37,103 nt of DNA, taken from a virus. The translations under genes and the position numbers were made by a program. The stretch is taken from the UHGV virus genome UHGV-0194471. One strand, 5' to 3'. Below the pieces are notes generated by a model that saw only the letters and a list, made by a program, of their open reading frames with translations, searched no databases and was not told the DNA's origin. This document shows positions 3,120 through 36,441 of the stretch, one piece after another. Positions within the stretch are counted from its first letter, which is position 1. Every line of letters begins with the position of its first letter.

Positions 3120-4244
3120 TCACACTCCTTTAATCACATCCGCATTCACCACCGGCACGCCGATATCAGCGGCCAGATTCATTGCGGCGATAACCAGATT
3201 CCCCAGCGCCAGCGGATAAAGCAGACTGACGTCACCGCGTCGGGATGAATTACATAATCGGGCGCGGATAGCATCGGCGGTGCTATCATCCAGCACCTCG
3301 GAAACACCTTTCCCGGTACGCTGAAATTTGAACGCCAGAAACGCTTCCAGATAGTTATCCAGCGGCAGCAGTTCGACGACCTCGCAGCGCTGTACCACTT
3401 CGCGCACCTCCTGATTACGTTCAGAAAGTTTCAGCTTTAGCTCCGGCTGGCCAATCAACACCACCGACAGCAGCTTTTTAAAGCCGTCCTCCAGCTCAAA
3501 GAACCGCTTCAAATGCTTGAGCGTCGGCACCGGTAGCGAGTGCGCCTCTTCAATAACCAGACAATGTGAGAACCCGGCGCGGGCCGACTCTTTCAGCACC
3601 CGGTGCAACTGGCGGTAACGGGCCTCCTGCGAGCGTTTGACGTTCTCCAGCGGTGCGATGGTGTTGATGATGGCCTCGGCAATCGACGCCGCTTTCAGAG
3701 TTTTGCCTTTGGCGTCGTTGTCTTCCATCGCAATGATGTACGGTTCGATGAGGATAACTGGCGCGTTTTCACGGTTGATGCGATCAGCCAGGTCACGGCG
3801 TAGCGTGGTTTTCCCTGCGCCGGATTCGCCAACTACGGCGATAAATCCGCCATGTCGCGCGGTCTGATACAGTGCTTCACGCACGTAGCGGATATCTGGC
3901 GTGGTGAACACGTCGTCCGCACTCTGCATAACCTCATCGGCGAACGGGTCGCGGAACAACCCAAAATGCTTCTTCGCCGCTGGATTTAATACCTGTTTTG
4001 CCAGTAACATATTTTCGTCCTCACTGGATGATGTACCGGTGCAGGCGGTGGCCGCCGTCTGCGCCTCCTTCAGTTCAATACCTTTTTCTGCAAAAAATGT
4101 GCTGATGCGCTCCCGTAGTTCTTCTGTTTTCGGCCACAGGCCGTGATTAACCATCTGCGCGATAACCGCTGCGGAAACTCCGGTAGCCTGTGCTACTGCT
4201 GCCTGAGTGATGCCACGCTGGCGCAACTGTTGTTTAATCTGCAT
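3120..4244 (-). CDS. MuB-like transposition ATPase / target DNA activator
   Basis: N-terminal HTH, Walker A GESGAGKT and Walker B-like HCLVIEEAH; lies immediately downstream of the transposase as in Mu A-B. Confidence 0.8.
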   Translation of the reverse strand: MQIKQQLRQRGITQAAVAQATGVSAAVIAQMVNHGLWPKTEELRERISTFFAEKGIELKEAQTAATACTGTSSSEDENMLLAKQVLNPAAKKHFGLFRDPFADEVMQSADDVFTTPDIRYVREALYQTARHGGFIAVVGESGAGKTTLRRDLADRINRENAPVILIEPYIIAMEDNDAKGKTLKAASIAEAIINTIAPLENVKRSQEARYRQLHRVLKESARAGFSHCLVIEEAHSLPVPTLKHLKRFFELEDGFKKLLSVVLIGQPELKLKLSERNQEVREVVQRCEVVELLPLDNYLEAFLAFKFQRTGKGVSEVLDDSTADAIRARLCNSSRRGDVSLLYPLALGNLVIAAMNLAADIGVPVVNADVIKGV

Positions 4245-4253
4245 AACTCCCCC

Positions 4254-6008
4254 TTAACCGCCGACTACGTTCAGTTGCACTCGGGCGGTAAGCTGCTGCG
4301 CGGCGGCGTCCAGTTCTTCTTCCGCCACGCCTTCTGGCCAGCGTTTCACCAGTTCCTGATACAGTGCGACGTTCCATTCCGGCAACCGTGCTTTCAGCGC
4401 CTTCGCCGCCTCGACGTGAGTCAGACGCCGGGCTTCAACGCGTGGAGCGCGTACCGGGGAATCCTGACCACGACGCGGCAGGAACGCGGGCAGTTCGCTG
4501 TCGGTGATGGGTTTATACGGGTCAAGCCTGCCGCCGAACGGCAGCGCCTTCGCTTTACGCGCCGCAGCCGCGTCCGTCTCGTTATCTGTTCCGGTAACAA
4601 TCTGCTCAATCTGTTTAGCCGCAGTCTGCGCGGGTGTATCGGCGTGGCGCTTGTGATTCTGGCCCAGCACCGCCGCGCCTTCGGCAAAGCCGTATTCGTC
4701 CTTGCGGACTTCCTCCACCAGGTGAAAATACTCGTGGCCATCGTCACCGATGAGCACTACCTGCGCGGCATCGCTGCGCCACGGATTGCGGGTGATCATC
4801 AGTTTTTCACCCACCATCACATCTGGCACGGTGGAGACGTCGTATTCCGTACCCTGAAACGACACGCGCAGCTTCGGCGTTATCTTGCGGCTTTCCGGCG
4901 CGGCAACAGCCAGTTCGCGGCAGACCTCCACCGATGGCGCTTTGATAAGCTGCTGCGCGGTGATGGTCATCCAGACGTTACTACGCGACTTGCCGTGGCG
5001 GGTGTGAATCGCGGTGGCGTTGAAGTGCTGCCGCCACAGGCGCGCTTTGGCGTTCAGTTCCTCCAGGCTGTGAACCGGCTGGAACTTCAGCCCCGGTTCA
5101 AAGCGGCGTTCGATAATGTCGCGCGCCTTTTCCACCTGCCCGGTGGCGCGGGCGTTGTGGGCTTTATGCGCCACCACGTCAATGCCCAGCGAACGACAGA
5201 GGTTCTTCGTCATAGCGGCGGTGTTGGCCGAGCCGGGGTCGAGATACAACATATGCGGCACGCCGTGGAGCACATCCGCGCCGCCGCGCTCCTGCATGGC
5301 ATTGATGAGAACGGAACAGAGATTTTCGCCAGACTCCGCCCCCATCACGTATTCAACGTAGATCCAGCCGCTGGTATGGTCGGTCAGTTCATAGCTCCAT
5401 ACCCGGTCACTGGCGATACGTTGCAGGTTCTTCGGCTTGTTTTTGTAGAACGTCGCGCTGTCCATCACCTGTAACCCGCGCTGGCCGTTGCTGAGGTAGT
5501 ACAGCGTGCAGAGCGAGGCGTCGATTTCCCAGACGTGATTGGGGTGCAGACTGGCAAGCTCCGTCACTGGCGCGGGCTGGCTGAGTTGATCCGGGTGCAG
5601 GCCGTAGCCACGCAGCGCCCGGATGATGGTGCTTTCTGACAATGGCACCCACTCGCCGCTTTCCTCATCCAGCCGCCCGGCGTCAATCTCGCCGTTGGCG
5701 CGTAACATCTCCACGGCATCAATGACGGAATACAGGCGCTTGCCGTTCTTACGGGTGGCTTCCGTCAGCGTAGCGGAAATCATCACCGCCTCATCGCGGG
5801 TCAGCGCGGTTTTTCCGGCGTCGGTGCGGCGCTTGCGTTTATCGGTCACGGCAACCTCCTTTATTCTGCGTAACAGCGTGGCGCGGGACAGGCCAAGTTC
5901 CGCGCAGGCGGCAGTGTAGATTGCGCCGCGTGCGCCATGCCCGGCCTGCCGTGCAGCCTGAGCAACAGCAACTAAGCGTTCGGTCATGACGGCGCTCATG
6001 GTCAGCAT
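4254..6008 (-). CDS. Mu-family DDE transposase
   Basis: 584 aa with an integrase-type catalytic core (candidate DDE residues in WEIDAS, YLDPGS, QVEKARDIIERRFE); position upstream of the B-like ATPase. Confidence 0.8.
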   Translation of the reverse strand: MLTMSAVMTERLVAVAQAARQAGHGARGAIYTAACAELGLSRATLLRRIKEVAVTDKRKRRTDAGKTALTRDEAVMISATLTEATRKNGKRLYSVIDAVEMLRANGEIDAGRLDEESGEWVPLSESTIIRALRGYGLHPDQLSQPAPVTELASLHPNHVWEIDASLCTLYYLSNGQRGLQVMDSATFYKNKPKNLQRIASDRVWSYELTDHTSGWIYVEYVMGAESGENLCSVLINAMQERGGADVLHGVPHMLYLDPGSANTAAMTKNLCRSLGIDVVAHKAHNARATGQVEKARDIIERRFEPGLKFQPVHSLEELNAKARLWRQHFNATAIHTRHGKSRSNVWMTITAQQLIKAPSVEVCRELAVAAPESRKITPKLRVSFQGTEYDVSTVPDVMVGEKLMITRNPWRSDAAQVVLIGDDGHEYFHLVEEVRKDEYGFAEGAAVLGQNHKRHADTPAQTAAKQIEQIVTGTDNETDAAAARKAKALPFGGRLDPYKPITDSELPAFLPRRGQDSPVRAPRVEARRLTHVEAAKALKARLPEWNVALYQELVKRWPEGVAEEELDAAAQQLTARVQLNVVGG

Positions 6009-14239: not shown

Positions 14240-15843
14240 AACCTTTAAGCAGCACCGTCCGTATTGTTGACTGGGAGGAACTGCCGCCCAGAGCCAGAGA
14301 TATTCCGGCTGGTTTTAACCCAATGACCGACGGCGTTCTGATGAAACATCAGGTGGATGTCCTGAAAATCAGAAAGTCGATTCTCGCTGTGCCTAAAGGC
14401 CGTCGAACTGGCATCACCTTTGCCTTTGGCTTTGAAGCTGTCCTGACCGCAGCCGCCCGGAAAAGCAGCGGAGGTATGGACGTTTACTACATCGGCGATA
14501 CCAAAGAGAAAGGTCTGGAGTTTATCGGTTACTGCGCCAAATTCTCTCGTGTTATTGCCGAACAACAGGCGGATTCTGTCTCCAGCATTGAAGAGTTCTT
14601 GTTTGACGATCAGGACGAGGATGGCAACACCCGCAAAATCACCGCCTATCGTGTCCGCTATGCGTCAGGTTTTCAGACTGTCGCACTATCATCCCGTCCT
14701 GCGAATATTCGTGGTTTGCAAGGGATGGTGATCATAGACGAAGCTGCGTTCCATCAGGATGTTCAAGGGGTACTGGACGCGGCAACGGCACTTCTCATCT
14801 GGGGGGGTAGGATTGTGGTGATCTCCTCGCATAAAGGAAAATCGAACCGCTTCAACGCCTTTATTATTGATATTGAAAACGGCTTATACGGCGAGGATGC
14901 AGCGGTTTATACCGTGACTTTCGATGATGCTGTAGCTAACGGGCTGTACGAGCGCGTCTGTTTTATGCAGGGCGAAGAACCTACGCTGGAGGGGAAAACC
15001 GCCTGGTACAGTCGCATCCGTAATGCCTATGGCCCGCGTAAAGCCGCCATGCGCGAGGAACTGGACGCGATCCCCCGCGACGGCAATGGCATCTGTATTC
15101 CTGGGATCTGGATAGAAGCCGCGATGCCGCCGGGAGACGACCGGACAATACTGCGGCTGACGCTGGATGAGGGTTTCACGGCGAAATCCAGGAAGGAGCG
15201 CGAAGAGTACGTCACCGACTGGATCATGCGTTATCTGGAGCCGGTGATCGCCGGGCTTGATATCAGCCTGCGTTATGCAATGGGGGATGACTTTGCCCGC
15301 CACCGCGATTTTTCCGCCATTGTGCTGATGGCCATCATGCCCAACCTGTACCGCCGCGTGCCGCTGATTATTGAAATGCACAAGGTTCCCACCCGCCAAC
15401 AGGAGCAAATCCTGTGGTATCTGCTGCGCGCTCTGCGGTGTTTTTCCGGGGCGATGGATGCCACCGGGCCGGGGCAGACGCTGGCAGAGTATACCGCCGA
15501 TGAGTTCGGCACCAGCCGTATCGCGCAGGTTAACCTTAGTCGTTCCTGGTATGGGTTGTGGATGCCAAAGCTGATTCAGGCATTTGAAGATGGCGTGCTG
15601 ACATTACCAGCGGATGAGAACGTGCGGCAGGATCTGCATTCCGTCGAGGATATTGACGGTATTCCGATGGTTTCCTCGGTGCGTAAAGAAGACCTTAAAG
15701 ACCCGGAGCTGTTCCGCCACGGCGATACGGCTATTGCGCTGGCGCTGGCATGGTTTGCATCTGTCGCCATACATACCGGCCCGGTGACGGTGAACTCCCG
15801 CCGCCGTCGCCAGTCCGCACGATTACTGGAGAACTATCACTGA
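14236..15843 (+). CDS. Terminase large subunit (Mu gp28-like)
   Basis: 535 aa; Walker B-like VIIDEAAF; position between the gp27-like and portal genes. Confidence 0.7.
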   Translation: MKPLSSTVRIVDWEELPPRARDIPAGFNPMTDGVLMKHQVDVLKIRKSILAVPKGRRTGITFAFGFEAVLTAAARKSSGGMDVYYIGDTKEKGLEFIGYCAKFSRVIAEQQADSVSSIEEFLFDDQDEDGNTRKITAYRVRYASGFQTVALSSRPANIRGLQGMVIIDEAAFHQDVQGVLDAATALLIWGGRIVVISSHKGKSNRFNAFIIDIENGLYGEDAAVYTVTFDDAVANGLYERVCFMQGEEPTLEGKTAWYSRIRNAYGPRKAAMREELDAIPRDGNGICIPGIWIEAAMPPGDDRTILRLTLDEGFTAKSRKEREEYVTDWIMRYLEPVIAGLDISLRYAMGDDFARHRDFSAIVLMAIMPNLYRRVPLIIEMHKVPTRQQEQILWYLLRALRCFSGAMDATGPGQTLAEYTADEFGTSRIAQVNLSRSWYGLWMPKLIQAFEDGVLTLPADENVRQDLHSVEDIDGIPMVSSVRKEDLKDPELFRHGDTAIALALAWFASVAIHTGPVTVNSRRRRQSARLLENYH

Positions 15844-17321
15844 TGCCACGCGGAATCTACGTTACCCCCACCGAGTTTGTCTCATTCATCGAGCCGACCA
15901 AAAGCCTGTCAGAGCAAATCGCTGTCCGCTCGCGCTCGATTGATTTTTACGGGCTGGGAATGTACCTGCCCAACCCTGACCCCATTCTCAAGGCGCAGGG
16001 GCGCGATATCAAAATCTACCGCGAACTGCGCAGCGATCCCTTAGTCGGCGGTTGTATCCGGCGACGTAAAGCGGCGGTGAAAGCGCTGGAGCACGGTGTC
16101 GAACGCGGCAACGCCACGGCGCGGGTGTTTCGCTTTGTGCGTGATCTGTTCGCGGATTTAGATATCGCCCGCATCACCGGTGAAATGACCGACGCTGTGC
16201 TCTACGGCTATCAGCCGTGTGAACTGATGTGGGCGCGTGGCGGCAAATCATGGGCAGTGACCGATGTGGTGGGTAAGCCCCCGGAGTGGTTCCAGTTCGA
16301 TATGGAAAACCGCCTGCGCTTTCGCGCCCGTAATGCCGGACTAGAGGGCGAGTTGACGCCACCGTATAAATTCCTGCTGCCGCGTCAGGATGCGACCTAC
16401 GATAACCCGTATGGTTTCCCGGATCTGTCGATGTGCTTCTGGCCCGTGACCTTCAAGAAAGGCGGCATGAAGTTCTGGGTGCGCTTTGCCGAGAAATACG
16501 GCTCGCCGTGGGTTGTCGGCAAGCATCCGCGTGGTACGTCGCAGGGTGAGATTAACCAGTTGCTGGATTCGCTGGAGGCGATGATTGAGGATGCGGTGGC
16601 CGCTATCCCGGATGACTCTTCGGTGGATATCAAAGAGGCCGCAGGTAAAGCCGATTCCAGCGATATTTACCAGAACCTGATCACAATGTCGCGCAGTGAG
16701 ATTTCCATTGCCTTGCTGGGGCAGAATCAGACCACTGAAGCCAGCGCCAACAAAGCTTCGGCGCAGGCCGGGCTGGAAGTGACGGATGATATCCGTGACG
16801 GTGATGCATCCATTGTAACCAGCGCGTTTAACCAACTTATCCGCTGGATTGTGGAACTGAACTTTGGTGCGGTGGACTGCCCTGTGTTCCGTATGTGGGA
16901 GCAGAAAACGGTTGATGAGGTGCAGGCCGGACGCGACCAGAAGTTATCGCAGGCAGGTGTGAAATTCACCCCGCAGTACTGGAAGCGCGAGTATCAATTA
17001 CAGGATGGCGATATCGACGAAACCCCGGCACCTGCGCCAGTGGCATTTGCGGAGGCGGTGACAGCGGATGTCGCCGCGCAGGAGCTGCTTGACACGGCGC
17101 TGGATGAACTGATGACCAGCGGTAAGCTGGACGATACGCTGACGCCGGTGCTGGCTCCCTTGTTTGCGCGGGTACAAAAAGGCGTCGCACCAGCGGTGCT
17201 GATGGGCGAACTGGCGGAACTGTACCCCCAGATGAACACCGACGACCTGACAGAACGGCTGGCGCGTGTGCTGTTTGTGGCGAATATCTGGGGGCGGCTC
17301 CATGAGCGTGACGAGCAGTGA
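15843..17321 (+). CDS. Portal protein (Mu gp29-like, DUF935)
   Basis: ~492 aa; ATG overlaps the terminase stop; conserved synteny terminase-portal-F. Confidence 0.7.
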   Translation: MPRGIYVTPTEFVSFIEPTKSLSEQIAVRSRSIDFYGLGMYLPNPDPILKAQGRDIKIYRELRSDPLVGGCIRRRKAAVKALEHGVERGNATARVFRFVRDLFADLDIARITGEMTDAVLYGYQPCELMWARGGKSWAVTDVVGKPPEWFQFDMENRLRFRARNAGLEGELTPPYKFLLPRQDATYDNPYGFPDLSMCFWPVTFKKGGMKFWVRFAEKYGSPWVVGKHPRGTSQGEINQLLDSLEAMIEDAVAAIPDDSSVDIKEAAGKADSSDIYQNLITMSRSEISIALLGQNQTTEASANKASAQAGLEVTDDIRDGDASIVTSAFNQLIRWIVELNFGAVDCPVFRMWEQKTVDEVQAGRDQKLSQAGVKFTPQYWKREYQLQDGDIDETPAPAPVAFAEAVTADVAAQELLDTALDELMTSGKLDDTLTPVLAPLFARVQKGVAPAVLMGELAELYPQMNTDDLTERLARVLFVANIWGRLHERDEQ

Positions 17322-22124: not shown

Positions 22125-22351
22125 AATTTATTTACCGCGGCCCGGCCAGCGGCGTGACGTTAGCCGATGGCGCAGAAGTGCTGCTCTGGCCAGAGCATGA
22201 GGTGGAACTGCCGGAAGATCTGGACTATGTGCAGACGCTGCTGGCGCTGAAGCATCTCACACCAGCGCCAGTTGAACCCGAAGTGGTGCCTGAACCTGAA
22301 CCACAACCCCTGAAGGGTAAAAAAGAGAAGGAGACAACCAGTGGCAGCTAA
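22121..22351 (+). CDS. Small protein preceding the sheath gene (Mu gp38-like)
   Basis: 76 aa with a proline/glutamate-rich C-terminus. Confidence 0.4.
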   Translation: MKFIYRGPASGVTLADGAEVLLWPEHEVELPEDLDYVQTLLALKHLTPAPVEPEVVPEPEPQPLKGKKEKETTSGS

Positions 22352-23756
22352 TTATTTACACGGCGTCGAGACTATCGAGATCGAACGCGGCCCGCGCCCG
22401 GTGCGTACCGTTAAGTCGGCGGTGATTGGTCTTGTAGGAACGGCTCCGGCTGGCCCGATTAACACATCGGTATTGTGCCTGTCAGAGAAAGACGCGGCGC
22501 AGTTCGGCTCGCAGGTTTCCGGGTTCAGTATCCCGCAGGCACTGGATGCGATTTATGACCACGGCGCGGGAACGGTGGTGGTAATTAACGTGGCCGATCC
22601 GGCAAAGCACAGCGTAACGGCCTCTACCATCGCACGTCGGGTTGATGATAATCATCAGATCAGGCTGGACTATGGCGCGGTCAGTAATGTCGTTTTGAAG
22701 GTGTCGGGCGCGAGTTCAGATTTAAGCCCGGCAAATTATACCGTTGATGCCGGAACTGGCGTTGTTACATGCCCGACGGTTAACGCAGGCGACACGCTGT
22801 TTGCCACATATCGTTATATCGATCCGACAAAAATCACCGCTGCCGATATCATCGGCGCGATCAATGCCGCAGGCCAGCGTATCGGGATGAAGCTGCTGGA
22901 GGATACCTATAGTCTCTATGGTTTTAAACCGAAAATCCTGATCGCCCCGGTGTTCTGTACGCAAAAATCGGTCAGTACCGAGCTGATTGCCCTGGCGGAA
23001 AAGCTGGACGCTATCACCTATATCGATGCGCCAGTTGGCACGACCTTCAGCCAGGTGCTGGCAGGCCGTGGCGCATCCGGGACTATCAACTTCAATACCA
23101 GTTCCGAACGCGCCCGTCTGTGCTACCCGCACGTTAAGGTGTATGACTCTGTCACCGACAGCGAACGGCTGGAGCCGCTTTCCTCCCGCGCCGCTGGCCT
23201 GCGTGCCAAAGTGGATCTGGATAACGGTTTCTGGTGGAGCAACTCCAACCAGGAGATCCTCGGCATCACTGGTGTGGAACGTTCGCTGTCGGCGATGATT
23301 GATGACCCGCAAAGCGAGGTGAATCAACTGAACGAAAACGGCATCACCACCGTTTTCAACAGCTACGGCACCGGGATGCGACTGTGGGGCAACCGTACCG
23401 CCGCCTGGCCGACCGTTACCCATATGCGCAACTTTGAAAATGTGCGGCGCACCGGGGATGTGATTAACGAGTCGATCCGTTACTTCAGTCAGCAGTATCT
23501 GGATATGCCGATTAACCAGGCGCTGATTGACGCGCTAACCGAATCGGTGAATGCCTATGGCCGCAAGCTGATTGGCGACGGCGCATTGCTGGGCTTCGAG
23601 TGCTGGTATGACCCGGCGCGTAATGAGCAGACCGAGCTGGCCGCTGGCCATCTGCTGCTCAGTTACAAATATACGCCGCCTCCGCCGCTGGAACGGCTGA
23701 CGTTTGAGACGGAAATCACTTCGGAATATCTGGTTAATCTGGAAGGTAAACGCTGA
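22341..23756 (+). CDS. Tail sheath protein (Mu L-like)
   Basis: 471 aa, directly followed by the tube gene. Confidence 0.7.
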   Translation: MAANYLHGVETIEIERGPRPVRTVKSAVIGLVGTAPAGPINTSVLCLSEKDAAQFGSQVSGFSIPQALDAIYDHGAGTVVVINVADPAKHSVTASTIARRVDDNHQIRLDYGAVSNVVLKVSGASSDLSPANYTVDAGTGVVTCPTVNAGDTLFATYRYIDPTKITAADIIGAINAAGQRIGMKLLEDTYSLYGFKPKILIAPVFCTQKSVSTELIALAEKLDAITYIDAPVGTTFSQVLAGRGASGTINFNTSSERARLCYPHVKVYDSVTDSERLEPLSSRAAGLRAKVDLDNGFWWSNSNQEILGITGVERSLSAMIDDPQSEVNQLNENGITTVFNSYGTGMRLWGNRTAAWPTVTHMRNFENVRRTGDVINESIRYFSQQYLDMPINQALIDALTESVNAYGRKLIGDGALLGFECWYDPARNEQTELAAGHLLLSYKYTPPPPLERLTFETEITSEYLVNLEGKR

Positions 23757-24280
23757 TGGGCGGAAAAATTGAAGTTAACCGTATTACCAACGCCAATATC
23801 TATATCAATGGTAATAACCTGCTGGGCCGCGCGGAGGAGATTAAGCTGCCGGATATCAGCATGATTATGCAGGAGCATAAGGCGCTGGGGATGGTCGGCA
23901 AGATTGAGTTGCCCGCTGGGTTCGACAAACTGGAGGGCGAAATCAAGTGGAACAGCTTCTATCGCGAAGTGATGCGCCATGCGGCTAACCCGTATAAGTC
24001 GCTGGCGTTGCAGTGCCGTTCGTCTATCGACCGCTATAACTCAACGGGGCGTATCGATGAAATCCCGCTGGTGACGCACCTGACGGTAATGTTCAAGAAG
24101 AATCCGCTGGGGACGTTTAAGCAACATGAGAACCCGGATTTTTCCAGTGCCTTTAGCTGCACCTATATCAAGCAGGTGGTGGACGGCGAGACGCTGCTGG
24201 AACTGGATTATCTGGCGAATATCTTCAAAGTGAATGGCGTGGATCAGTTGAGCACCTATCGCGCCAATATCGGCGGTTAA
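23756..24280 (+). CDS. Tail tube protein (Mu M-like)
   Basis: 174 aa immediately after the sheath gene. Confidence 0.65.
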   Translation: MGGKIEVNRITNANIYINGNNLLGRAEEIKLPDISMIMQEHKALGMVGKIELPAGFDKLEGEIKWNSFYREVMRHAANPYKSLALQCRSSIDRYNSTGRIDEIPLVTHLTVMFKKNPLGTFKQHENPDFSSAFSCTYIKQVVDGETLLELDYLANIFKVNGVDQLSTYRANIGG

Positions 24281-24360: not shown

Positions 24361-24663
24361 ATGACAGACACATTCAAACTGCAATACCCCTTCACCGCAC
24401 CCTCCGGGCAGCGTATCGACGAACTGCAACTGACTCGCCTGAAGGTCAAAGATATGCGTGCGGCTCGACGTATCAGCGATAAACCTGAAGACTGGGACGA
24501 ACCGCTACTGGCGGCGATGACCGGACTGGTGCCGGAAGATTTGGCCGAAATGGATCTTGCTGACTATCAGGCGTTGCAGAAACGATTTCAGAACATGCTT
24601 GGGCTGGGCGGCGAACCCGCAGCAACTGTGGCAGGCGATGGCGCTGCTGGCACGGTGGTTTAG
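24361..24663 (+). CDS. Tail assembly chaperone (between tube and tape measure)
   Basis: 100 aa in the conserved chaperone position; an open +1 frame extends to 24763. Confidence 0.55.
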   Translation: MTDTFKLQYPFTAPSGQRIDELQLTRLKVKDMRAARRISDKPEDWDEPLLAAMTGLVPEDLAEMDLADYQALQKRFQNMLGLGGEPAATVAGDGAAGTVV

Positions 24664-24737
24664 GTTTCAACCAGGGGAAATTGACAATCTGGCGGTCGGG
24701 GATTTTGAACGCTGGCTTGATGAGGCCAGCGCCCAGA

Positions 24738-25016
24738 TTAAGCGTGAGAACGGCGGCGGTTGAGTACCCATTCGGTGATGCTGCCGACAAGGGCGAACAG
24801 GAAGGCCAGCAGGGAAATGGCCGGGCTAAATAACCAGCCTGCCAGTGCGGTCAGCAACAGTACACCAACGCTGCCCACACCAATCATCAAAGTTGCCGCC
24901 AGCCCATCATGGCAGTTATGCAGGGTATAGCTGACCACATGAAACAGCGCCCAACCATCCACCGCCACAATCGCGGCGATCAATAGTCCTTTAAACAGGG
25001 TTAATGCGTTGTTCAT
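24738..25016 (-). CDS. Minus-strand small membrane protein (3 predicted TM helices) inside the tail operon
   Basis: 92 aa; AAGAGG RBS 5 nt before the ATG; fills a gap between chaperone and tape-measure genes that no plus-strand gene covers. Confidence 0.5.
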   Translation of the reverse strand: MNNALTLFKGLLIAAIVAVDGWALFHVVSYTLHNCHDGLAATLMIGVGSVGVLLLTALAGWLFSPAISLLAFLFALVGSITEWVLNRRRSHA

Positions 25017-25056
25017 AACGCCTCTTTTTTATTGTGGTTTTCCGGGAGTGTAAAGC

Positions 25057-27831
25057 GTGGCTGCTGAATTTTCAATCGGTGTTCTTATTAGTGGCGCAGT
25101 CACTGGCGCATTTCGTTCTGCTATTGGAGGAACCCAGCGAGCGTTAAACGATCTCCAATCCACCACGCAGCGATTGCAAAACCGTCAGGCCGCGCTGACG
25201 CAGGCGATGACACGTTACGGGCAGGCAGGTATTAGCAGTACATCCCGGCTCAACAACGAATTACAGCAAGTCAGTCGCACAATGGCGCGGCTGGAAAGCC
25301 AGCAAAATAAATTATCCAGCGCAACGGCGCGTAGCCAGGCGATGCGTTCGCAGCGGATGGATCTTTACGCCCAGGGTGCAGAGACCTACGCGCTGGCCAG
25401 AACGATGTCGGCCCCTCTGGTGTCGTCAGTGAAAACCTATGCGGGGTTTGAATCAGGGCTGCGGGATATTGCCGTGACCGGGGATCTGGACAGTAAACAG
25501 GAAGCGGCGATCGATAACGCCATCCGTCAGGCAGCGGGTAAAGTCAACCAGTTGCAGGAAACGCTACTCGGTGGCGTGAATCAACTGGTAGCCGATGGTA
25601 TGAACCCGGAGAAAGCGGCGGGAATGGTGGATTTGCTTGGTAAAACCGCCACGGCCACCAAGGCTGATATGACCGATCTGGCAAAAATGACTTTCGCTTT
25701 TAGCGATGCCTTGAAGATTAGCGATGGAAAGGAGATGCAGGAAGCCTTTGCAATGGCAGCGGTCGGAGCAAAGACCGGCTCCTTTGAACTGAAAGATATG
25801 GCAAAGGCATTGCCTACCCTGACAAAAAGCTTTGCGGCTAAAGGTATTACGGGTAAGGAAGCGATTAAAGAAATTGTCGCCTCTCTCGAAGCTGCAAAAG
25901 GCTCTGGTTCGGCAGAAGAAGCCGTGACCAATATGACCAACTGGATGGGCGCAATGACGCGCGGCGATACCGTCAAGAAATATGAAAAGGCGGGCGTAAA
26001 TTATGAAGCGTCGATGAAAGATTATGTCGCCAAAGGTTATTCGCAATATGAAGCCTCGCTGATGATTGCTGACCGCTTTATTAAAGGTAAAGGCGATGCC
26101 TTTATAAAACAGTGGCAGGAAGCGGGGGCACGTGGCGACGGTGAGTCGCAACAGAAGTTGATGGAGTCGTTTGGTCTGTCGGAGGTTTTTACCGATATTC
26201 AAACCGTCAATCATCTGCTTTCCATGCGTCAGAACTGGGATCAATATCAGTCGAATAAAGCCAAAATGGGTGACCCGGCATCACAGAATGTGCTGGATAC
26301 TGATTTTAATAAGCAAAACGATACCCTGGAAGCCCGCTGGCGAAGCTCGCAGGTAGCGATGAATGAGATGGCAATCAGTATCGGTAGTTCTCTACGCCCG
26401 GCACTGGTCGAATTATCGGAAAGTCTGCTGCCAGTAATGAGTTCTTTTGCAAAATGGCTTTCAGCTAACCCGGAGATGGTGGCGAATATAGCCAAACTAC
26501 TGGCCGGATTTATTGCATTCAAAGCGGCGACGGTCGGTAGCAAGCTGGCTCTGAATATGATGTTGTCGCCGTTTGTGGATTGTATTAAAGCGGTAACGTT
26601 GCTTAACACGAAATGGCTGCTTCTGAAAACAGCCTTTTCGTCTGGCGGCAAACTGGCAGGCATCACTAAGTTGTTCGGCTCGCTAGCGCGTGGTGCCTTG
26701 TCATTAGGCAAAATCCTTGCCGGTGGATTAATGCGTGGCGTGATGATGGCCGCCCGTGCCGTAATGTTTCTGGGCCGTGCGCTGCTGATGAATCCCATCG
26801 GGTTGATTATCACTGGCATCGCGGCAGCCGCGTATCTGATTTATCGCTACTGGGGGCCCATTTCCGGCTTCTTTAAACGGCTGTGGGCGCAGGTCACGGT
26901 AGCGTTTCGCGGGGCGTGGAGCGGCATCAAAGGTATCTGGAGTGGCGTGTCGGGCTGGTTCTCTGGTATCTGGGCGCAAATCAAAACCGCATTCAGCGGT
27001 GGGATTGGCGGCGTGGCAAAGCTGATTACCAACTGGTCGCCGCTGGGCCTGTTCTATAAAGCTTTTGCCGGAGTGATGAAATACTTCGGTATCGATATGC
27101 CGAAGAACTTTACCGATTTTGGCGGTAATCTGATTAACGGTCTGATGAACGGTATCGGCAATGCGCTGACTGCTGCGAAAGAGACGGTCGTTAACTTTGG
27201 TAACTCGATTTCAGGCTGGTTTAAGGAGACGCTGGGCATTCACTCCCCGAGCCAGGTGTTTGCCGGGTTCGGCGACAATATCGCGCAAGGGGCCGCTATC
27301 GGTATCAACCGCACCGCCCCGGATGCGATTTCCGCCAGCCAACAGATGGCGGCGGCGTTAATTCCCCCGTTGCTGGATATCCGCGTTCCGGGTCTGGATG
27401 TTGCCGCAATACCACAGCGACCACCTGTTGCGGGTGGCATCGCGCCTCAACTCAACCCACTGCTGCCGAAAGTCGCACCGCCCACCATTGTGCCAGCCCC
27501 CACTGCGGCGGGTATGGCGCTGGCTGGGGCGGCGGGCGCGGTGTTATCTCGCCGCAAACCGCTGCCGCCAGTGCCACCAAAACCCGCCGTACCTGCCGTT
27601 CCTGAACTGCCGAAAAGTACCGCACCAGCCGCCAAAGGCCGCAATGCCAGTGCGCGTGTGCCGGGGCAGTCATCCGGGGTGAATGTGACCTTTGCGCCGC
27701 AAATTACCATCAAAGGCGCGGCATCGACGACCGAGGGCGAAATCACCTCTGCGCTGAAACTGAGCCTGCACGAACTTGAAAAGATGATGGAGCGGATTAT
27801 GGCGCGTCGTGAACGCCGGGAGTATGCATAA
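25057..27831 (+). CDS. Tail tape measure protein
   Basis: 924 aa, GTG start after GGGAG; long helical protein with internal hydrophobic segments and a Pro-rich C-terminal region; sits after the chaperone. Confidence 0.75.
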   Translation: MAAEFSIGVLISGAVTGAFRSAIGGTQRALNDLQSTTQRLQNRQAALTQAMTRYGQAGISSTSRLNNELQQVSRTMARLESQQNKLSSATARSQAMRSQRMDLYAQGAETYALARTMSAPLVSSVKTYAGFESGLRDIAVTGDLDSKQEAAIDNAIRQAAGKVNQLQETLLGGVNQLVADGMNPEKAAGMVDLLGKTATATKADMTDLAKMTFAFSDALKISDGKEMQEAFAMAAVGAKTGSFELKDMAKALPTLTKSFAAKGITGKEAIKEIVASLEAAKGSGSAEEAVTNMTNWMGAMTRGDTVKKYEKAGVNYEASMKDYVAKGYSQYEASLMIADRFIKGKGDAFIKQWQEAGARGDGESQQKLMESFGLSEVFTDIQTVNHLLSMRQNWDQYQSNKAKMGDPASQNVLDTDFNKQNDTLEARWRSSQVAMNEMAISIGSSLRPALVELSESLLPVMSSFAKWLSANPEMVANIAKLLAGFIAFKAATVGSKLALNMMLSPFVDCIKAVTLLNTKWLLLKTAFSSGGKLAGITKLFGSLARGALSLGKILAGGLMRGVMMAARAVMFLGRALLMNPIGLIITGIAAAAYLIYRYWGPISGFFKRLWAQVTVAFRGAWSGIKGIWSGVSGWFSGIWAQIKTAFSGGIGGVAKLITNWSPLGLFYKAFAGVMKYFGIDMPKNFTDFGGNLINGLMNGIGNALTAAKETVVNFGNSISGWFKETLGIHSPSQVFAGFGDNIAQGAAIGINRTAPDAISASQQMAAALIPPLLDIRVPGLDVAAIPQRPPVAGGIAPQLNPLLPKVAPPTIVPAPTAAGMALAGAAGAVLSRRKPLPPVPPKPAVPAVPELPKSTAPAAKGRNASARVPGQSSGVNVTFAPQITIKGAASTTEGEITSALKLSLHELEKMMERIMARRERREYA

Positions 27832-32054: not shown

Positions 32055-32766
32055 GTTACCGCTTCAACCGCCGCTCGCCGGGGATGAACGCTTTACCCGG
32101 CTGGCAAATCTTGCCGCTGAACGCTTCGCACAACTCGATCTGACCGCGCTTCTGATTTACCTGGTGGATCTGGTGGATGCCACGGCGCTGCCGTCGCTGG
32201 CAGAACAGTTCCACGTTCAGGGGCTGGAAGGCTGGCTGTTTGCCCGCGATGAGCGACAAAAGCGCGATCTGATCAAGCAGGCCATTGAGCTGCACCGCTA
32301 TCGCGGTACGCCGTGGGCAGTGCGTCAGGTACTGAAGATTCTGGCGTTGGACGGCGATATCAGCGAGTGGTTTGAGTATGGCGGTAAGCCGTACTTTTTC
32401 CGCATGGATGTCACGCTTGAGACGCGCGGGCTGACTGAGGATGAATTTAACGCGCTGATTGTGCTGATCCATGAGTACAAGAACGTCCGCTCAAAGCTGG
32501 AGATGCTGACTATCTGGCTGATTAACCAGAGCCAGATCCCGGTTATCGCCAGTGCTGTTCAGGGCGGCGAGATTGCTACCGTTCTGCCGTGGATTGCGGA
32601 GAGCGTGAGTCAGTCGTCTGCGGTTTATCTGGCGACGGAGTGTTTGAGTGCAGAGGTGGTAACGGTGTTGCCTCCGCTGCATGGCAATGTTGAGCAGACC
32701 AGCGTTATGAGTGTTGGAGCGGGCTGCTGGAGTATTGAGTTTGTCACTGTTTACCCGGAGGAGTAA
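32047..32766 (+). CDS. Tail protein I-like (P2 gpI / Mu gp48-like)
   Basis: 239 aa, …ATALPSLAEQFHVQGLEGW… pattern; lies before the tail fibre. Confidence 0.55.
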   Translation: MDKLPLQPPLAGDERFTRLANLAAERFAQLDLTALLIYLVDLVDATALPSLAEQFHVQGLEGWLFARDERQKRDLIKQAIELHRYRGTPWAVRQVLKILALDGDISEWFEYGGKPYFFRMDVTLETRGLTEDEFNALIVLIHEYKNVRSKLEMLTIWLINQSQIPVIASAVQGGEIATVLPWIAESVSQSSAVYLATECLSAEVVTVLPPLHGNVEQTSVMSVGAGCWSIEFVTVYPEE

Positions 32767-34466
32767 TGGCGAGTGAATTTTTTACCATTTTAACCGCCGC
32801 TGGCCGCGCGAAGATTGCTGCGGCGCTGGCGGAACAAAAGCAGATAGTGCTGCAAACAATGGTCGTTGGCGACGGCGGCGGGCAGTATGCCGAACCGAAA
32901 GAGAGCCAGACAAAGGTGGTGCGTGAAGTCTGGCGCGGGTCACTGAATACGCTGAAAATCGCCCCGGAAAACCCGGCGTGGGTGATTGCCGAGGCGGTAC
33001 TGCCGGAAGCGAAAGGCGGCTGGTATATCCGCGAGGTGGGATTGCTGGATATGGACGGCGTGCTGATTGCCATCGGCAAGTTCCCGGAAACCTATAAGCC
33101 GAAGCTGCCTGCCGGGGCCAGTAAGCAAATTGTGATCCGCGCTGTGATGGAAGTGACGAACGCGGCGGCGGTAACGCTGATGGTTGATCCGTCGCTGGTG
33201 ATGGCAACGGTAGATTATGTGGACTCCAGTATTGAAGAGCACGAAAGATCACATAATCACCCGGACGCAACGCTGACGCAGAAAGGCTTTACGCAGCTTA
33301 ACAGCTCCACCAATAGCACGCTGGAAACGCAGGCAGCAACGCCGAAGGCGGTGAAGGCGGCGATGGATAAGGCGAATGAGGCACTGGAAAAAGCTGGGGC
33401 TGATAAAGCGCATAAACATCCGTGGGCCGATATTACCGGGGTGCCGGATGGGACAACGGCGCAGAAAGGGGTTGTGAAGCTTAATAGCTCAACGAACAGT
33501 ACCAGTACGACGGAGGCTGCGACACCGAGTGCGGTTAAGGCGGCATATGACCTGGCGAATGGTAAGGCGGCGGGGAGCCATAAACATGCCTGGGGCGATA
33601 TTACCGGGGTACCGGATGGCACTACGGCGCAAAAAGGGATCGTAAAGCTCAACAGCGCGACGAACAGCACCAGTACTACCGAAGCGGCCACGCCCGGCGC
33701 AGTGAAGGCGGCGTATGACCTGGCGAACGGGAAAGCGGCTTCCAGCCATACTCACGCATGGAGTCAGATTACCGGCGTACCGGATGCAACTACAGCGCAA
33801 AAAGGGGTTGTGAAGCTTAATAGCGCGACGAACAGTACCAGTACGACTGAAGCCGCAACGCCGAGCGCGGTTAAGGCGGCGTATGACAAGGCGAATACAG
33901 CAATCTCCAGTTTTGCTCTTTTCACGTCGAATGGGACGTTTACGGTGCCAGTCGGGGTAACGAAAGTGATGGTGGAAATGATTGGAGGTGGAGGTGGTGG
34001 CGGCGGCGGTGGTGTGGGTGGTGGTGAGCGAATTGGTTATCCGACAGCAGGTAAACCATCACTTTTTGTTCAAGGGATTGTTGCTGTGAACTCTGGACAA
34101 AATGTAACCGTCACAGTCGGCGGAGGCGGTGTTGGGGGATCATCAAAAGTAGATACTGGTGGTGGTTCGATGACCGGGAGTAATGGGTACGCCGGAGGAA
34201 ACTCAATTTTCTTAACGCTCACTTCTGTTGGTGGTAGCGGCGGCGGCGGTGCATTGCCAGATTCTGGTCCTGGCAACGCATTAAATGAGCCAGGTTCTGA
34301 TTCAACGCATGGCTATGGCGGGGGGACTAAGTATAACTCGCAGAAAAATGCCGTAGGTTATGGTTCGAGTGGTGCGGCTGGTACCTCTAAAGGCGTCAGA
34401 ACTGTTGAAGGGGACTCTACAGCAGGTGGCAATGGTGCTTCAGGTTTTGTCAGAATATGGTGGTAA
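32766..34466 (+). CDS. Tail fibre protein with tandem repeats and Gly-rich C-terminal domain
   Basis: 566 aa; conserved N-terminal baseplate-attachment region; five ~40-aa repeats; C-terminus with poly-Gly runs and lower GC. Confidence 0.7.
   Translation: MASEFFTILTAAGRAKIAAALAEQKQIVLQTMVVGDGGGQYAEPKESQTKVVREVWRGSLNTLKIAPENPAWVIAEAVLPEAKGGWYIREVGLLDMDGVLIAIGKFPETYKPKLPAGASKQIVIRAVMEVTNAAAVTLMVDPSLVMATVDYVDSSIEEHERSHNHPDATLTQKGFTQLNSSTNSTLETQAATPKAVKAAMDKANEALEKAGADKAHKHPWADITGVPDGTTAQKGVVKLNSSTNSTSTTEAATPSAVKAAYDLANGKAAGSHKHAWGDITGVPDGTTAQKGIVKLNSATNSTSTTEAATPGAVKAAYDLANGKAASSHTHAWSQITGVPDATTAQKGVVKLNSATNSTSTTEAATPSAVKAAYDKANTAISSFALFTSNGTFTVPVGVTKVMVEMIGGGGGGGGGGVGGGERIGYPTAGKPSLFVQGIVAVNSGQNVTVTVGGGGVGGSSKVDTGGGSMTGSNGYAGGNSIFLTLTSVGGSGGGGALPDSGPGNALNEPGSDSTHGYGGGTKYNSQKNAVGYGSSGAAGTSKGVRTVEGDSTAGGNGASGFVRIWW
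33280..33900 (+). repeat. Five tandem ~120-nt coding repeats in the tail fibre gene
   Basis: Repeated peptide …TAQKGVVKLNS(S/A)TNSTSTTEAATP(S/G)AVKAAYD(L/K)AN…. Confidence 0.7.
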
Positions 34467-35667: not shown

Positions 35668-36441
35668 ATGAAAACATTACCCATTATTCCGTGGCCCGGC
35701 GGTAAGCGTCGTCTGGCCAAAAAGTTATTACCGTTATTTCCTGAGCACCAGTGTTATGTAGAGCCATTCTGCGGCGGTGCAGCCTTGTATTTCATGAAGG
35801 AGCCGGTTGAAGCTGAAGTCCTGAACGATATCAACGGCGAACTGGTGAATCTGTACCGTGTGGTTAAAAATCATCTTGAAGAGTTTGTGCGCCAGTTCAA
35901 GTGGGCGTTGAGCAGCAGGCAGATTTTTGAATGGTCGAAAATGACCATCCCGGAGACGCTAACTGATATTCAGCGTGCAGCGCGGTTTTATTATCTCCAG
36001 AAGCAATCATTCGGAGGGAAAGTGGAATCACAGACGTATGGAACGGCGACCACTTCTGCACCACGGCTTAATCTGCTAAGGCTGGAAGAGGAGTTGAGCG
36101 CCGCCCATTTGCGGCTATCACGCACGTTTGTAGAACATTTACCGTGGCGTACCTGCATTGAGAAGTATGATCGCCCGCACACACTGTTCTATTGCGATCC
36201 CCCGTATTGGGGAACGGAGGGCTACGGTGTTGAATTTGGACTGGAGCAGTACACCCAACTTGCAGAGTTGGCCAGAACGATAAAAGGCAGGATGTTGATC
36301 AGTGTGAACGATATCCCGGAGATGCGTGAAACCTTTGCGGACTTGTCGATTGATACGGTAGATATTCGCTATACGTTGAGCGGTGGGCCTAATGCTAATC
36401 GCTCGAAAGTCAGCCGTGAGCTGGTCATTCGTAACTGGTAA
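35668..36441 (+). CDS. dam: DNA N6-adenine methyltransferase (Dam-like)
   Basis: FCGGAA (AdoMet-binding motif I-like) and DPPY catalytic motif; 257 aa; last gene before the prophage right end. Confidence 0.8.
   Translation: MKTLPIIPWPGGKRRLAKKLLPLFPEHQCYVEPFCGGAALYFMKEPVEAEVLNDINGELVNLYRVVKNHLEEFVRQFKWALSSRQIFEWSKMTIPETLTDIQRAARFYYLQKQSFGGKVESQTYGTATTSAPRLNLLRLEEELSAAHLRLSRTFVEHLPWRTCIEKYDRPHTLFYCDPPYWGTEGYGVEFGLEQYTQLAELARTIKGRMLISVNDIPEMRETFADLSIDTVDIRYTLSGGPNANRSKVSRELVIRNW

Follow-up and report, generated by a model that had tools for sequence, protein, structure and literature searches.

Programmed frameshifting in phage genes for tail assembly chaperones is textbook knowledge. For gp41/Mu_56 of phage Mu, a -2 frameshift on CGG_GGG_CGA has been verified, reportedly by Xu, Hendrix and Duda in 2004. 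Phage P2 makes E and E+E' by means of a -1 shift at T_TTT_TTG (Christie et al. 2002; GenBank AF063097), and in lambda the ratio of G to GT is about 30:1 (PMC5009743). According to a 2016 review, -1, -2 or +1 shifts are used in different tailed phages, the sole +1 example being that of a haloarchaeal myovirus, which is given as 'very likely' (PMC5009743). A +1 shift at UCC_UUU_CGU, established by mass spectrometry, operates in influenza PA-X (PMC3498833), and the authors of that work (Firth et al. 2012) predicted a wider class of sites made of 'UUU_C plus restricted A- and E-site codons' (PMC3498833). In bacteria, UUU_Ynn is prone to +1 shifting and is the likely site of YopN-TyeA. We deal here with the gene for the tail assembly chaperone in the virus genome UHGV-0194471, analysed over its whole length of 37,103 nucleotides (nt) and referred to below as the window. 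From its gene content, i.e. Mu-type transposition and head genes together with a P2-type tail, the window (1-37103) appears to be an almost complete BcepMu-like transposable prophage. Comparison with related loci makes it likely that a +1 programmed frameshift at CGA_UUU_C produces the long form of its chaperone. The locus comprises the following features:

23756-24280, plus strand: tail tube gene of the P2 FII type (PF04985 Phage_tube, E 2.5e-57), adjoining the chaperone gene on its upstream side
24361-24663, plus strand: short tail assembly chaperone of 100 amino acids (aa), zero frame, stop TAG 24661-24663 (PF10109 Phage_TAC_7)
24521-24763, plus strand: entire open +1 frame, with 80 sense codons before its TGA (from translation)
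24583-24591, plus strand: predicted +1 shift site CGA_TTT_CAG, containing the conserved single zero-frame TTT_C
24590-24763, plus strand: predicted +1-frame extension of the long form, 57 aa (RTCLGW...RENGGG) and stop TGA (from translation; phrog_8286)
24638-24742, plus strand: core of the E' domain, P2 GpE-like, LLARWFRFQPGEID...WLDEA..QIK (PF06528)
24738-25016, minus strand: independent gene for a 92-aa hydrophobic protein (same-slot homologues; called in E. coli A35 by the Prokaryotic Genome Annotation Pipeline, PGAP)
25057-27831, plus strand: tape measure gene, downstream partner of the chaperone (PF10145 PhageMin_Tail, E 2.7e-16)

The chaperone gene sits between the tube and tape measure genes, as the frameshift-chaperone paradigm demands. 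Its zero-frame open reading frame (ORF) ends GTT TAG at 24663, as already stated in the initial annotation of this DNA, and matches PF10109 ('E, or 41 or 14') with an E-value of 8.6e-21 (74 bits for a cut-off of 25, residues 4-80) as well as the tail protein family phrog_166. Neither this ORF nor the +1 ORF has a match in NCBIfam, and no structural relative of the fusion profile was found in the PDB. The +1 frame, which had been described as open from at least 24557 to 24763, is indeed open there; the open region actually starts at 24521, upstream of TTG 24557, and continues through to TGA 24761-24763. On its own, an open alternative frame of 81 codons is marginally unusual, at a few percent in GC-rich coding DNA by a rough estimate, and it is because this frame is conserved among relatives that it goes beyond chance. 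The 33 residues that had been read in the +1 frame after the zero-frame stop (RFQPGEIDNLAVGDFERWLDEASAQIKRENGGG) are correct, but they would be only the last part of an extension of 57 aa, with a shift site 75 nt upstream of the stop. A canonical -1 shift was rejected as a candidate: the zero frame contains no X_XXY_YYZ heptamer anywhere along the chaperone ORF, in agreement with the earlier observation, and the -1 frame, open in the window, closes at varying places in relatives and is not conserved.

The evidence for the site comes from 184 related loci, gathered via peptide patterns that exclude the junction and drawn from 18 + 80 IMG/VR contigs, 79 GTDB species genomes and several phage records. 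With hidden Markov models of the N domain and of the E' domain, the frame of E' relative to the chaperone was assigned as +1 in 168 loci, -1 in 12 and in frame in four. In each of the 168 +1 loci the overlap contains a single zero-frame TTT_C, which is located at the homologous Phe codon, 31-67 nt ahead of the conserved E' domain. A first set of 90 +1 loci was collapsed to 35 clusters at 85% nucleotide identity. In all 35 the codon is TTT, which is retained even in high-GC hosts, for a local TTT share of Phe codons of 0.08-0.84; the corresponding naive probability, 1e-16, ignores shared ancestry and overstates significance. The codon after TTT is CAG in 12 clusters, CGC in nine, CAA in seven, CTG in six and CGT in one, so the residue following Phe varies (Gln, Arg or Leu) and the first base of its codon is invariably C. 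The codon before TTT is CGA in 18 of the 35 clusters. When Arg precedes TTT, its codon is CGA in 70 out of 71 loci, compared to a background of about 13% of Arg codons (naive probability 1e-17.5, likewise overstated through shared ancestry). This TTT_C/CGA pattern is found across Enterobacterales, Burkholderiales, Neisseriales and Pseudomonas.

Stop codons in relatives bound the shift to the 17-nt interval lying between -8 and +8 nt around TTT, as set by loci L023, L068, L070, L073, L076, L102 and L097. In six clusters the +1 frame opens just 8 nt before TTT; Ralstonia phage L023, for instance, reads G TGA AGA CCC GAT TTC. In L097 the zero frame ends TTT CGC TGA, with a stop that starts 6 nt after TTT. 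Provided that the site is homologous across the family, the shift should fall within CGA_TTT_CNN.

What lies beyond the site in the +1 frame is a real protein domain, E'. The +1 peptide of the window matches phrog_8286 (E 1.4e-20), and PF06528 (Phage_P2_GpE) is matched by 17 out of 20 diverse extensions from relatives, with a best E-value of 3.3e-10. The window extension itself gives a sub-threshold PF06528 match within the predicted fusion (residues 93-127, E 0.024, 14.5 bits vs 23) and no match even at E 10 when scanned alone. Its assignment to PF06528 passes through the matches of its relatives and through the naming by PGAP of its E. coli orthologue: in an 87%-identical E. coli prophage copy, the +1 ORF is labelled as a separate 41-aa 'GpE family phage tail protein'. 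Selection can be read from the nucleotide differences. Between the window and Salmonella-type relatives, those under LWQAMALLARWFRF are synonymous in the +1 frame (CTG/CTA, GCG/GCA and, for Arg, CGG/AGA and AGG/CGC), and the same differences alter the zero-frame tail from GDGAAGTVV to GNGATGEMVSLSAQ, each followed by the stop. Among 53 distinct enteric relatives, amino-acid identity in the +1 frame is 0.84, 0.71 and 0.66 from +39 nt past the slip codon, and in the other two frames it is 0.42-0.61 over the same downstream region. In these 53 sequences, the sites ahead of the Phe76 codon vary most at codon position 3 of the zero frame, whereas from about 30 nt past this codon the maximum lies at codon position 3 of the +1 frame. 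Conservation of the +1-frame protein begins at least about 45 nt upstream of the zero-frame stop (LWQAMALLARWF...). Across Enterobacterales, Burkholderiales, Neisseriales and Pseudomonas, the +1 frame is intact and under purifying selection.

From this conservation we infer that the ribosome shifts frame, and that it does so by +1 rather than by -2. Most ribosomes would read 24361-24663 and make the 100-aa short chaperone, and a minority would shift at CGA_UUU_C (24583-24589), that is at CGA 24583-24585, TTT (Phe76) 24586-24588 and C 24589, 75 nt upstream of the zero-frame stop. In P-site slippage, with the peptidyl-tRNA-Phe in the P site and CGA in the E site, the tRNA would re-pair from UUU to the overlapping UUC (24587-24589), its better-matched codon. 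With its GAA anticodon, tRNA-Phe forms a Watson-Crick pair on UUC but a G:U wobble on UUU, and +1 is the sole workable re-pairing. The next codon would then be AGA 24590-24592, and decoding would go on through the E' domain to TGA 24761. The predicted long form has 133 aa, made of M1-F76 (24361-24588) and of the 57 aa encoded by 24590-24760, with ...ALQKRF/RTCLGW... at the predicted junction. An alternative sub-model leads to the same protein: tRNA-Arg(ICG) would be on CGA in the P site, with an I:A wobble, and Phe-tRNA would enter out of frame on UUC. Out-of-frame binding of this sort has a precedent in yeast Ty3, and it would explain why CGA is kept even in high-GC hosts. In both sub-models the signal appears to be a tetranucleotide plus its flanking codons. 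The window has the features of the UUU_Y class of +1 slippage sites, with UUU followed by a pyrimidine and a new ORF in the +1 frame, and the flanking codons are restricted in the family (frequently CGA before; CAG, CAA, CTG, CGC or CGT after).

Several points weigh against a +1 shift at this site. As regards stimulatory elements, the downstream RNA fold in the window is not significant (z = +0.54), the fold of the alignment (-6.3 kcal/mol) has no compensatory pairs and shows no covariation, and Rfam has no match for a stimulatory structure. The zero-frame A-site codon, CAG, is common and not rare, while the first +1 codon, AGA, is rare (3.1 per 1000) and should not favour capture of the new frame. 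CGA is missing from about half of the clusters, hence it is no universal requirement. Between the site and the E' domain there is a further +1-prone tetranucleotide, CCC_G (24616-24619), which is not conserved but could contribute. In addition, phylogenetic non-independence was left uncorrected in the cluster statistics, so the products quoted above overstate significance, and the support for both products, for their junction and for the efficiency of the shift is comparative throughout.

There is no Shine-Dalgarno-like sequence upstream of the slip site in the window, where the upstream hexamer is CAGAAA, and GGAG at the prfB spacing of 3 nt occurs in a few relatives only (L068, L071, L098, L101 and L102). 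A +1 shift of the prfB type was rejected for the window on account of this hexamer and of the A-site codon CAG. The common A-site codon, the rare AGA and the lack of a stop, a Shine-Dalgarno sequence or an RNA structure at the site suggest a low shift rate. Such a rate would be in keeping with a chaperone of which little is required in the long form, as in lambda with its G:GT ratio of about 30:1. By analogy with G/GT of lambda and E/E+E' of P2, the short and long forms would together coat the tape measure protein, and tube subunits would be recruited by the extension.

Two side observations concern the surroundings of the slip site. The first is that AAACGAUUUC, the sequence at the site (24580-24589), has its complement in the RWF codons (GRGRUGGUUU), located some 65 nt farther downstream (24650-24660), in all enteric relatives; both sides are constrained by the protein, so there is no covariation by which to judge the pairing. 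The second is that the linker between the slip site and E' contains CCC_G in the window and runs of C6-C7 in some Salmonella relatives (L016/L017, offsets of about 265-275). Such non-conserved tetranucleotides and C runs could add minor shifting or indel mutability.

Among explanations other than a +1 shift at CGA_UUU_C, the one that survives best, improbable as it is, dispenses with recoding: the +1 ORF would be translated alone as a small protein, the way PGAP presents it (41 aa from ATG 24638). This ATG does exist in the window, and PGAP calls the protein in E. coli A35 and a 73-aa version of it in Pectobacterium (P0055). However, the start is not conserved. Ahead of the E' domain, the +1 frame contains no ATG in 20 of the 35 clusters and no ATG, GTG or TTG in six of them, and no conserved start codon for the +1 ORF was found in the 35. 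The starts chosen by PGAP are themselves inconsistent, since the one in Pectobacterium precedes the slip site and the one in E. coli follows it. Moreover, separate translation leaves the invariant TTT_C and CGA unexplained, and the homologous E' of P2 is produced solely in fused form, through what is annotated as a -1 join.

Marginally less probable still is that the same frame is reached by another route, which could be -2 slippage as in Mu, a +1 shift at another tetranucleotide (CCC_G 24616) or slippage of the RNA polymerase. The first is suggested by Mu itself, whose gp41 also matches PF10109 and uses a verified -2 shift, given that +1 and -2 lead to the same frame. But CGG_GGG_CGA of Mu permits a -2 re-pairing, whereas a -2 move of tRNA-Phe in the window lands on GAU. 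A Mu-like -2 site was also sought as such and rejected: CGGGGGCGA of Mu has no counterpart in the window, and there is no such run at or near the bounded site. As to the other two routes, CCC_G is present in the window, and singleton proteins fused by the loss of 1 nt in a poly-C tract indicate that the region is prone to indels; yet neither CCC_G nor the poly-C runs are conserved, and both fall beyond the -8 to +8 interval, and the TTT homopolymer is too short for transcriptional slippage.

The indels deserve a few words. In the four in-frame loci (L027, L032, L134 and L141), single-base indels join the extension to the chaperone or disrupt it. In L027, 1 nt is inserted upstream of the slip site; in L134, an indel follows TTT by about 8 codons; and in both L032 and L141, a GGGGG run within E' is shortened by 1 nt, at the cost of the LLARWF half. 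Two database proteins (P0001 and P0002) have lost 1 nt in a poly-C tract. These in-frame versions could be decay, natural constitutive fusions or assembly errors. In a collection of 5.8 billion proteins, fused proteins are only singletons, caused by indels or deletions.

The initial annotation had proposed a stop-stimulated slip at GTT_TAG_G (24658-24664), in which a ribosome paused at the zero-frame stop, with tRNA-Val slipping +1, would add the last 33 residues only. Stop codons are known to stimulate +1 shifting in prfB (PMC10885494), and the window does have a stop codon followed by G. We nevertheless consider this mechanism very improbable, because the +1 protein is already conserved about 45 nt upstream of the stop, so that half of the LLARWFRF motif would go, and because the stop wanders among relatives, from 6 to 96 nt past the conserved Phe codon and in different contexts (e.g. 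CAG_TGA), while the shift itself is bounded around a TTT located 75 nt upstream in the window; besides, re-pairing of tRNA-Val from GUU to UUU would be poor according to codon-anticodon rules. Equally improbable is that the +1 ORF is a decaying remnant and the short chaperone the sole product, since decay, seen as indels in four of the 184 loci and so affecting some prophages, is contradicted by a +1 frame kept intact under purifying selection across the four groups of bacteria. What seems to hold from the initial annotation is the kind of event and its frame, a tube-to-tape-measure chaperone with a recoded long form read in +1, which gene identities and conservation support; the site, the length of the extension and a supposed gene conflict, to which we come below, would need revision.

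The 12 loci with E' in the -1 frame belong to Pasteurellaceae and Moraxella (L077, L081, L082, L086-L089, L093, L096, L100, L103 and L104), and each has the lambda heptamer G_GGA_AAG at the end of the short ORF. Because these members have a -1-frame extension with that heptamer, the direction of frameshifting appears to have switched within one protein family.

Among described systems, P2 has the same gene slot as the window (FII tube, E, T tape measure), the same combination of a PF10109 N terminus with a PF06528 extension, products of 91/142 aa vs 100/133 aa predicted here, and a slippery element with a TTT Phe codon where the N domain ends. The two differ in that P2 shifts by -1 on T_TTT_TTG, whereas the window family has a +1 extension, no heptamer and a conserved (CGA_)TTT_C. 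With Mu, the window has in common a myophage chaperone between tube and tape measure (with a weak PF10109 match in Mu), a long form read one base ahead of the zero frame and a CGA codon as part of the site. However, Mu slips two bases back and its CGA is the next unread codon, whereas CGA of the window precedes the slip codon and re-pairing there would work forward by one base only; in addition, the N domain of Mu is PF23746, for which the window chaperone protein has no match. The lambda gpG/gpGT pair is alike in consisting of a short chaperone and a rare frameshifted long form ahead of the tape measure gene. As in lambda, the window family has a second ORF, in another frame, which runs across the 3' end of the first and lacks a conserved start, and a conserved slippery sequence in the overlap, of the +1 type rather than a -1 heptamer. 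The Pasteurellaceae and Moraxella members even use the lambda G_GGA_AAG (PMC5009743), but no sequence similarity to G or T was found, and direction and signal differ in the window. The resemblance to PA-X lies in the mechanism, i.e. +1 on UUU_C, re-pairing of tRNA-Phe to UUC, no stop codon or RNA structure, and flanking codons that matter. PA-X is another gene in another host kingdom, and most members of the window family have CGA before the site, here predicted from sequence, and CAR or CUG after it, vs UCC and the rare CGU in PA-X.

BcepMu itself belongs to the family (L107, AY539836). Its gp41 is the PF10109 chaperone, and its gp42 corresponds to the E' ORF, in +1 relative to gp41; the gp41/gp42 module is orthologous to chaperone and E' of the window; the site reads UCC_UUU_CGC. 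The deposited record (L107, 4603-5364) names gp42/gp43 as the lambda G/T-like slippage pair. We propose instead that slippage in BcepMu would lead from gp41 to gp42 by +1 at UCC_UUU_CGC; gp43, at a guess, is a spurious ORF of the high-GC stretch that precedes the tape measure gene. In none of the 16 matched phage records are the gp41-like and gp42-like ORFs joined. No paper or database record was found for the +1 event in the BcepMu-like/P2 E' family, although a prior mention in Xu et al. 2004 or Summer et al. 2004 is possible.

On the 3' side, the extension has 26 nt in common with the 3' end of the minus-strand ORF (24738-25016), as had been noted, and it had been suspected on this ground that one of the two calls might be wrong. 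This suspicion is not upheld: the minus-strand ORF is conserved in place in several genera. Both calls stand, and their convergent 26-nt 3' overlap is unproblematic. Homologues of the minus-strand ORF occur in the same slot in 12 loci at 34-100% aa identity, 79% in E. coli A35, 45% in L005 and 34-43% in Brenneria, Pectobacterium and Symbiopectobacterium. Its place is conserved while its sequence is fast-evolving (34-79% aa), and family searches gave no match for it. A promoter-like site is located just upstream, on the minus strand (25075..25047). The position between chaperone and tape measure genes looks like a moron slot, and the 92-aa gene plays no part in the recoding device. In Pseudomonas phage Bise the slot is occupied by a minus-strand ORF of 96 aa, likened by position alone, and Salmonella-type relatives are without the minus-strand gene. 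In the latter (L006-L021), a GC-rich hairpin followed by a T-rich stretch (in L021, CGCAGGCTTAACGCCTGCGGGTTTC) occurs about 5-30 nt past the E' stop, ahead of the start of the tape measure gene, and looks like a terminator or attenuator inside the tail operon.

The rest of the window contains the other genes that characterize the prophage:

3120-4244, minus strand: MuB-like ATPase
4254-6008, minus strand: rve-type transposase
15750-17321: Mu-type portal
22341-23756: sheath gene (Pfam sheath domains)
32766-34466: tail fibre gene
35668-36441: Dam-like methylase/methyltransferase
window: P2-type tail genes, including GpU and GpD homologues

Natural conserved bacterial +1 sites that operate without a stop codon are few. 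The present family offers well over 100 natural UUU_C variants with informative flanking codons, and therefore material for E- and P-site models as well as for frameshift predictors; according to PRFect, forward frameshifts are without an identified general motif. Two annotations are corrected at the same time, that of PGAP, in which the gene is divided between a chaperone and a free-standing 'GpE family' mini-protein whose starts are arbitrary, and that of the BcepMu reference record, which puts slippage between the wrong ORFs. The direction of frameshifting changes within one protein family, and the two-product logic remains the same. A broader proposal, to which we would give about even odds, is that CGA_UUU_C, with its variants NCC_UUU_CGC and UGG_UUU_CGY, constitutes a dedicated and evolutionarily maintained +1 signal needing neither stop codon nor RNA structure, which would set the ratio of short to long chaperone in many BcepMu-like prophages, a large proteobacterial group. 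It would be stimulated mainly by the I:A wobble of tRNA-Arg on CGA, directly ahead of the slippery UUU, and would be the counterpart in bacteria of the PA-X site and of the class that Firth et al. 2012 predicted. If this is true, a single family would have solved the same problem with a +1 signal (UUU_C) and with two -1 heptamers (G_GGA_AAG and T_TTT_TTG), and a more distant relative, gp41 of Mu, compared by its N domain (weakly PF10109), uses a -2 shift to the same end.

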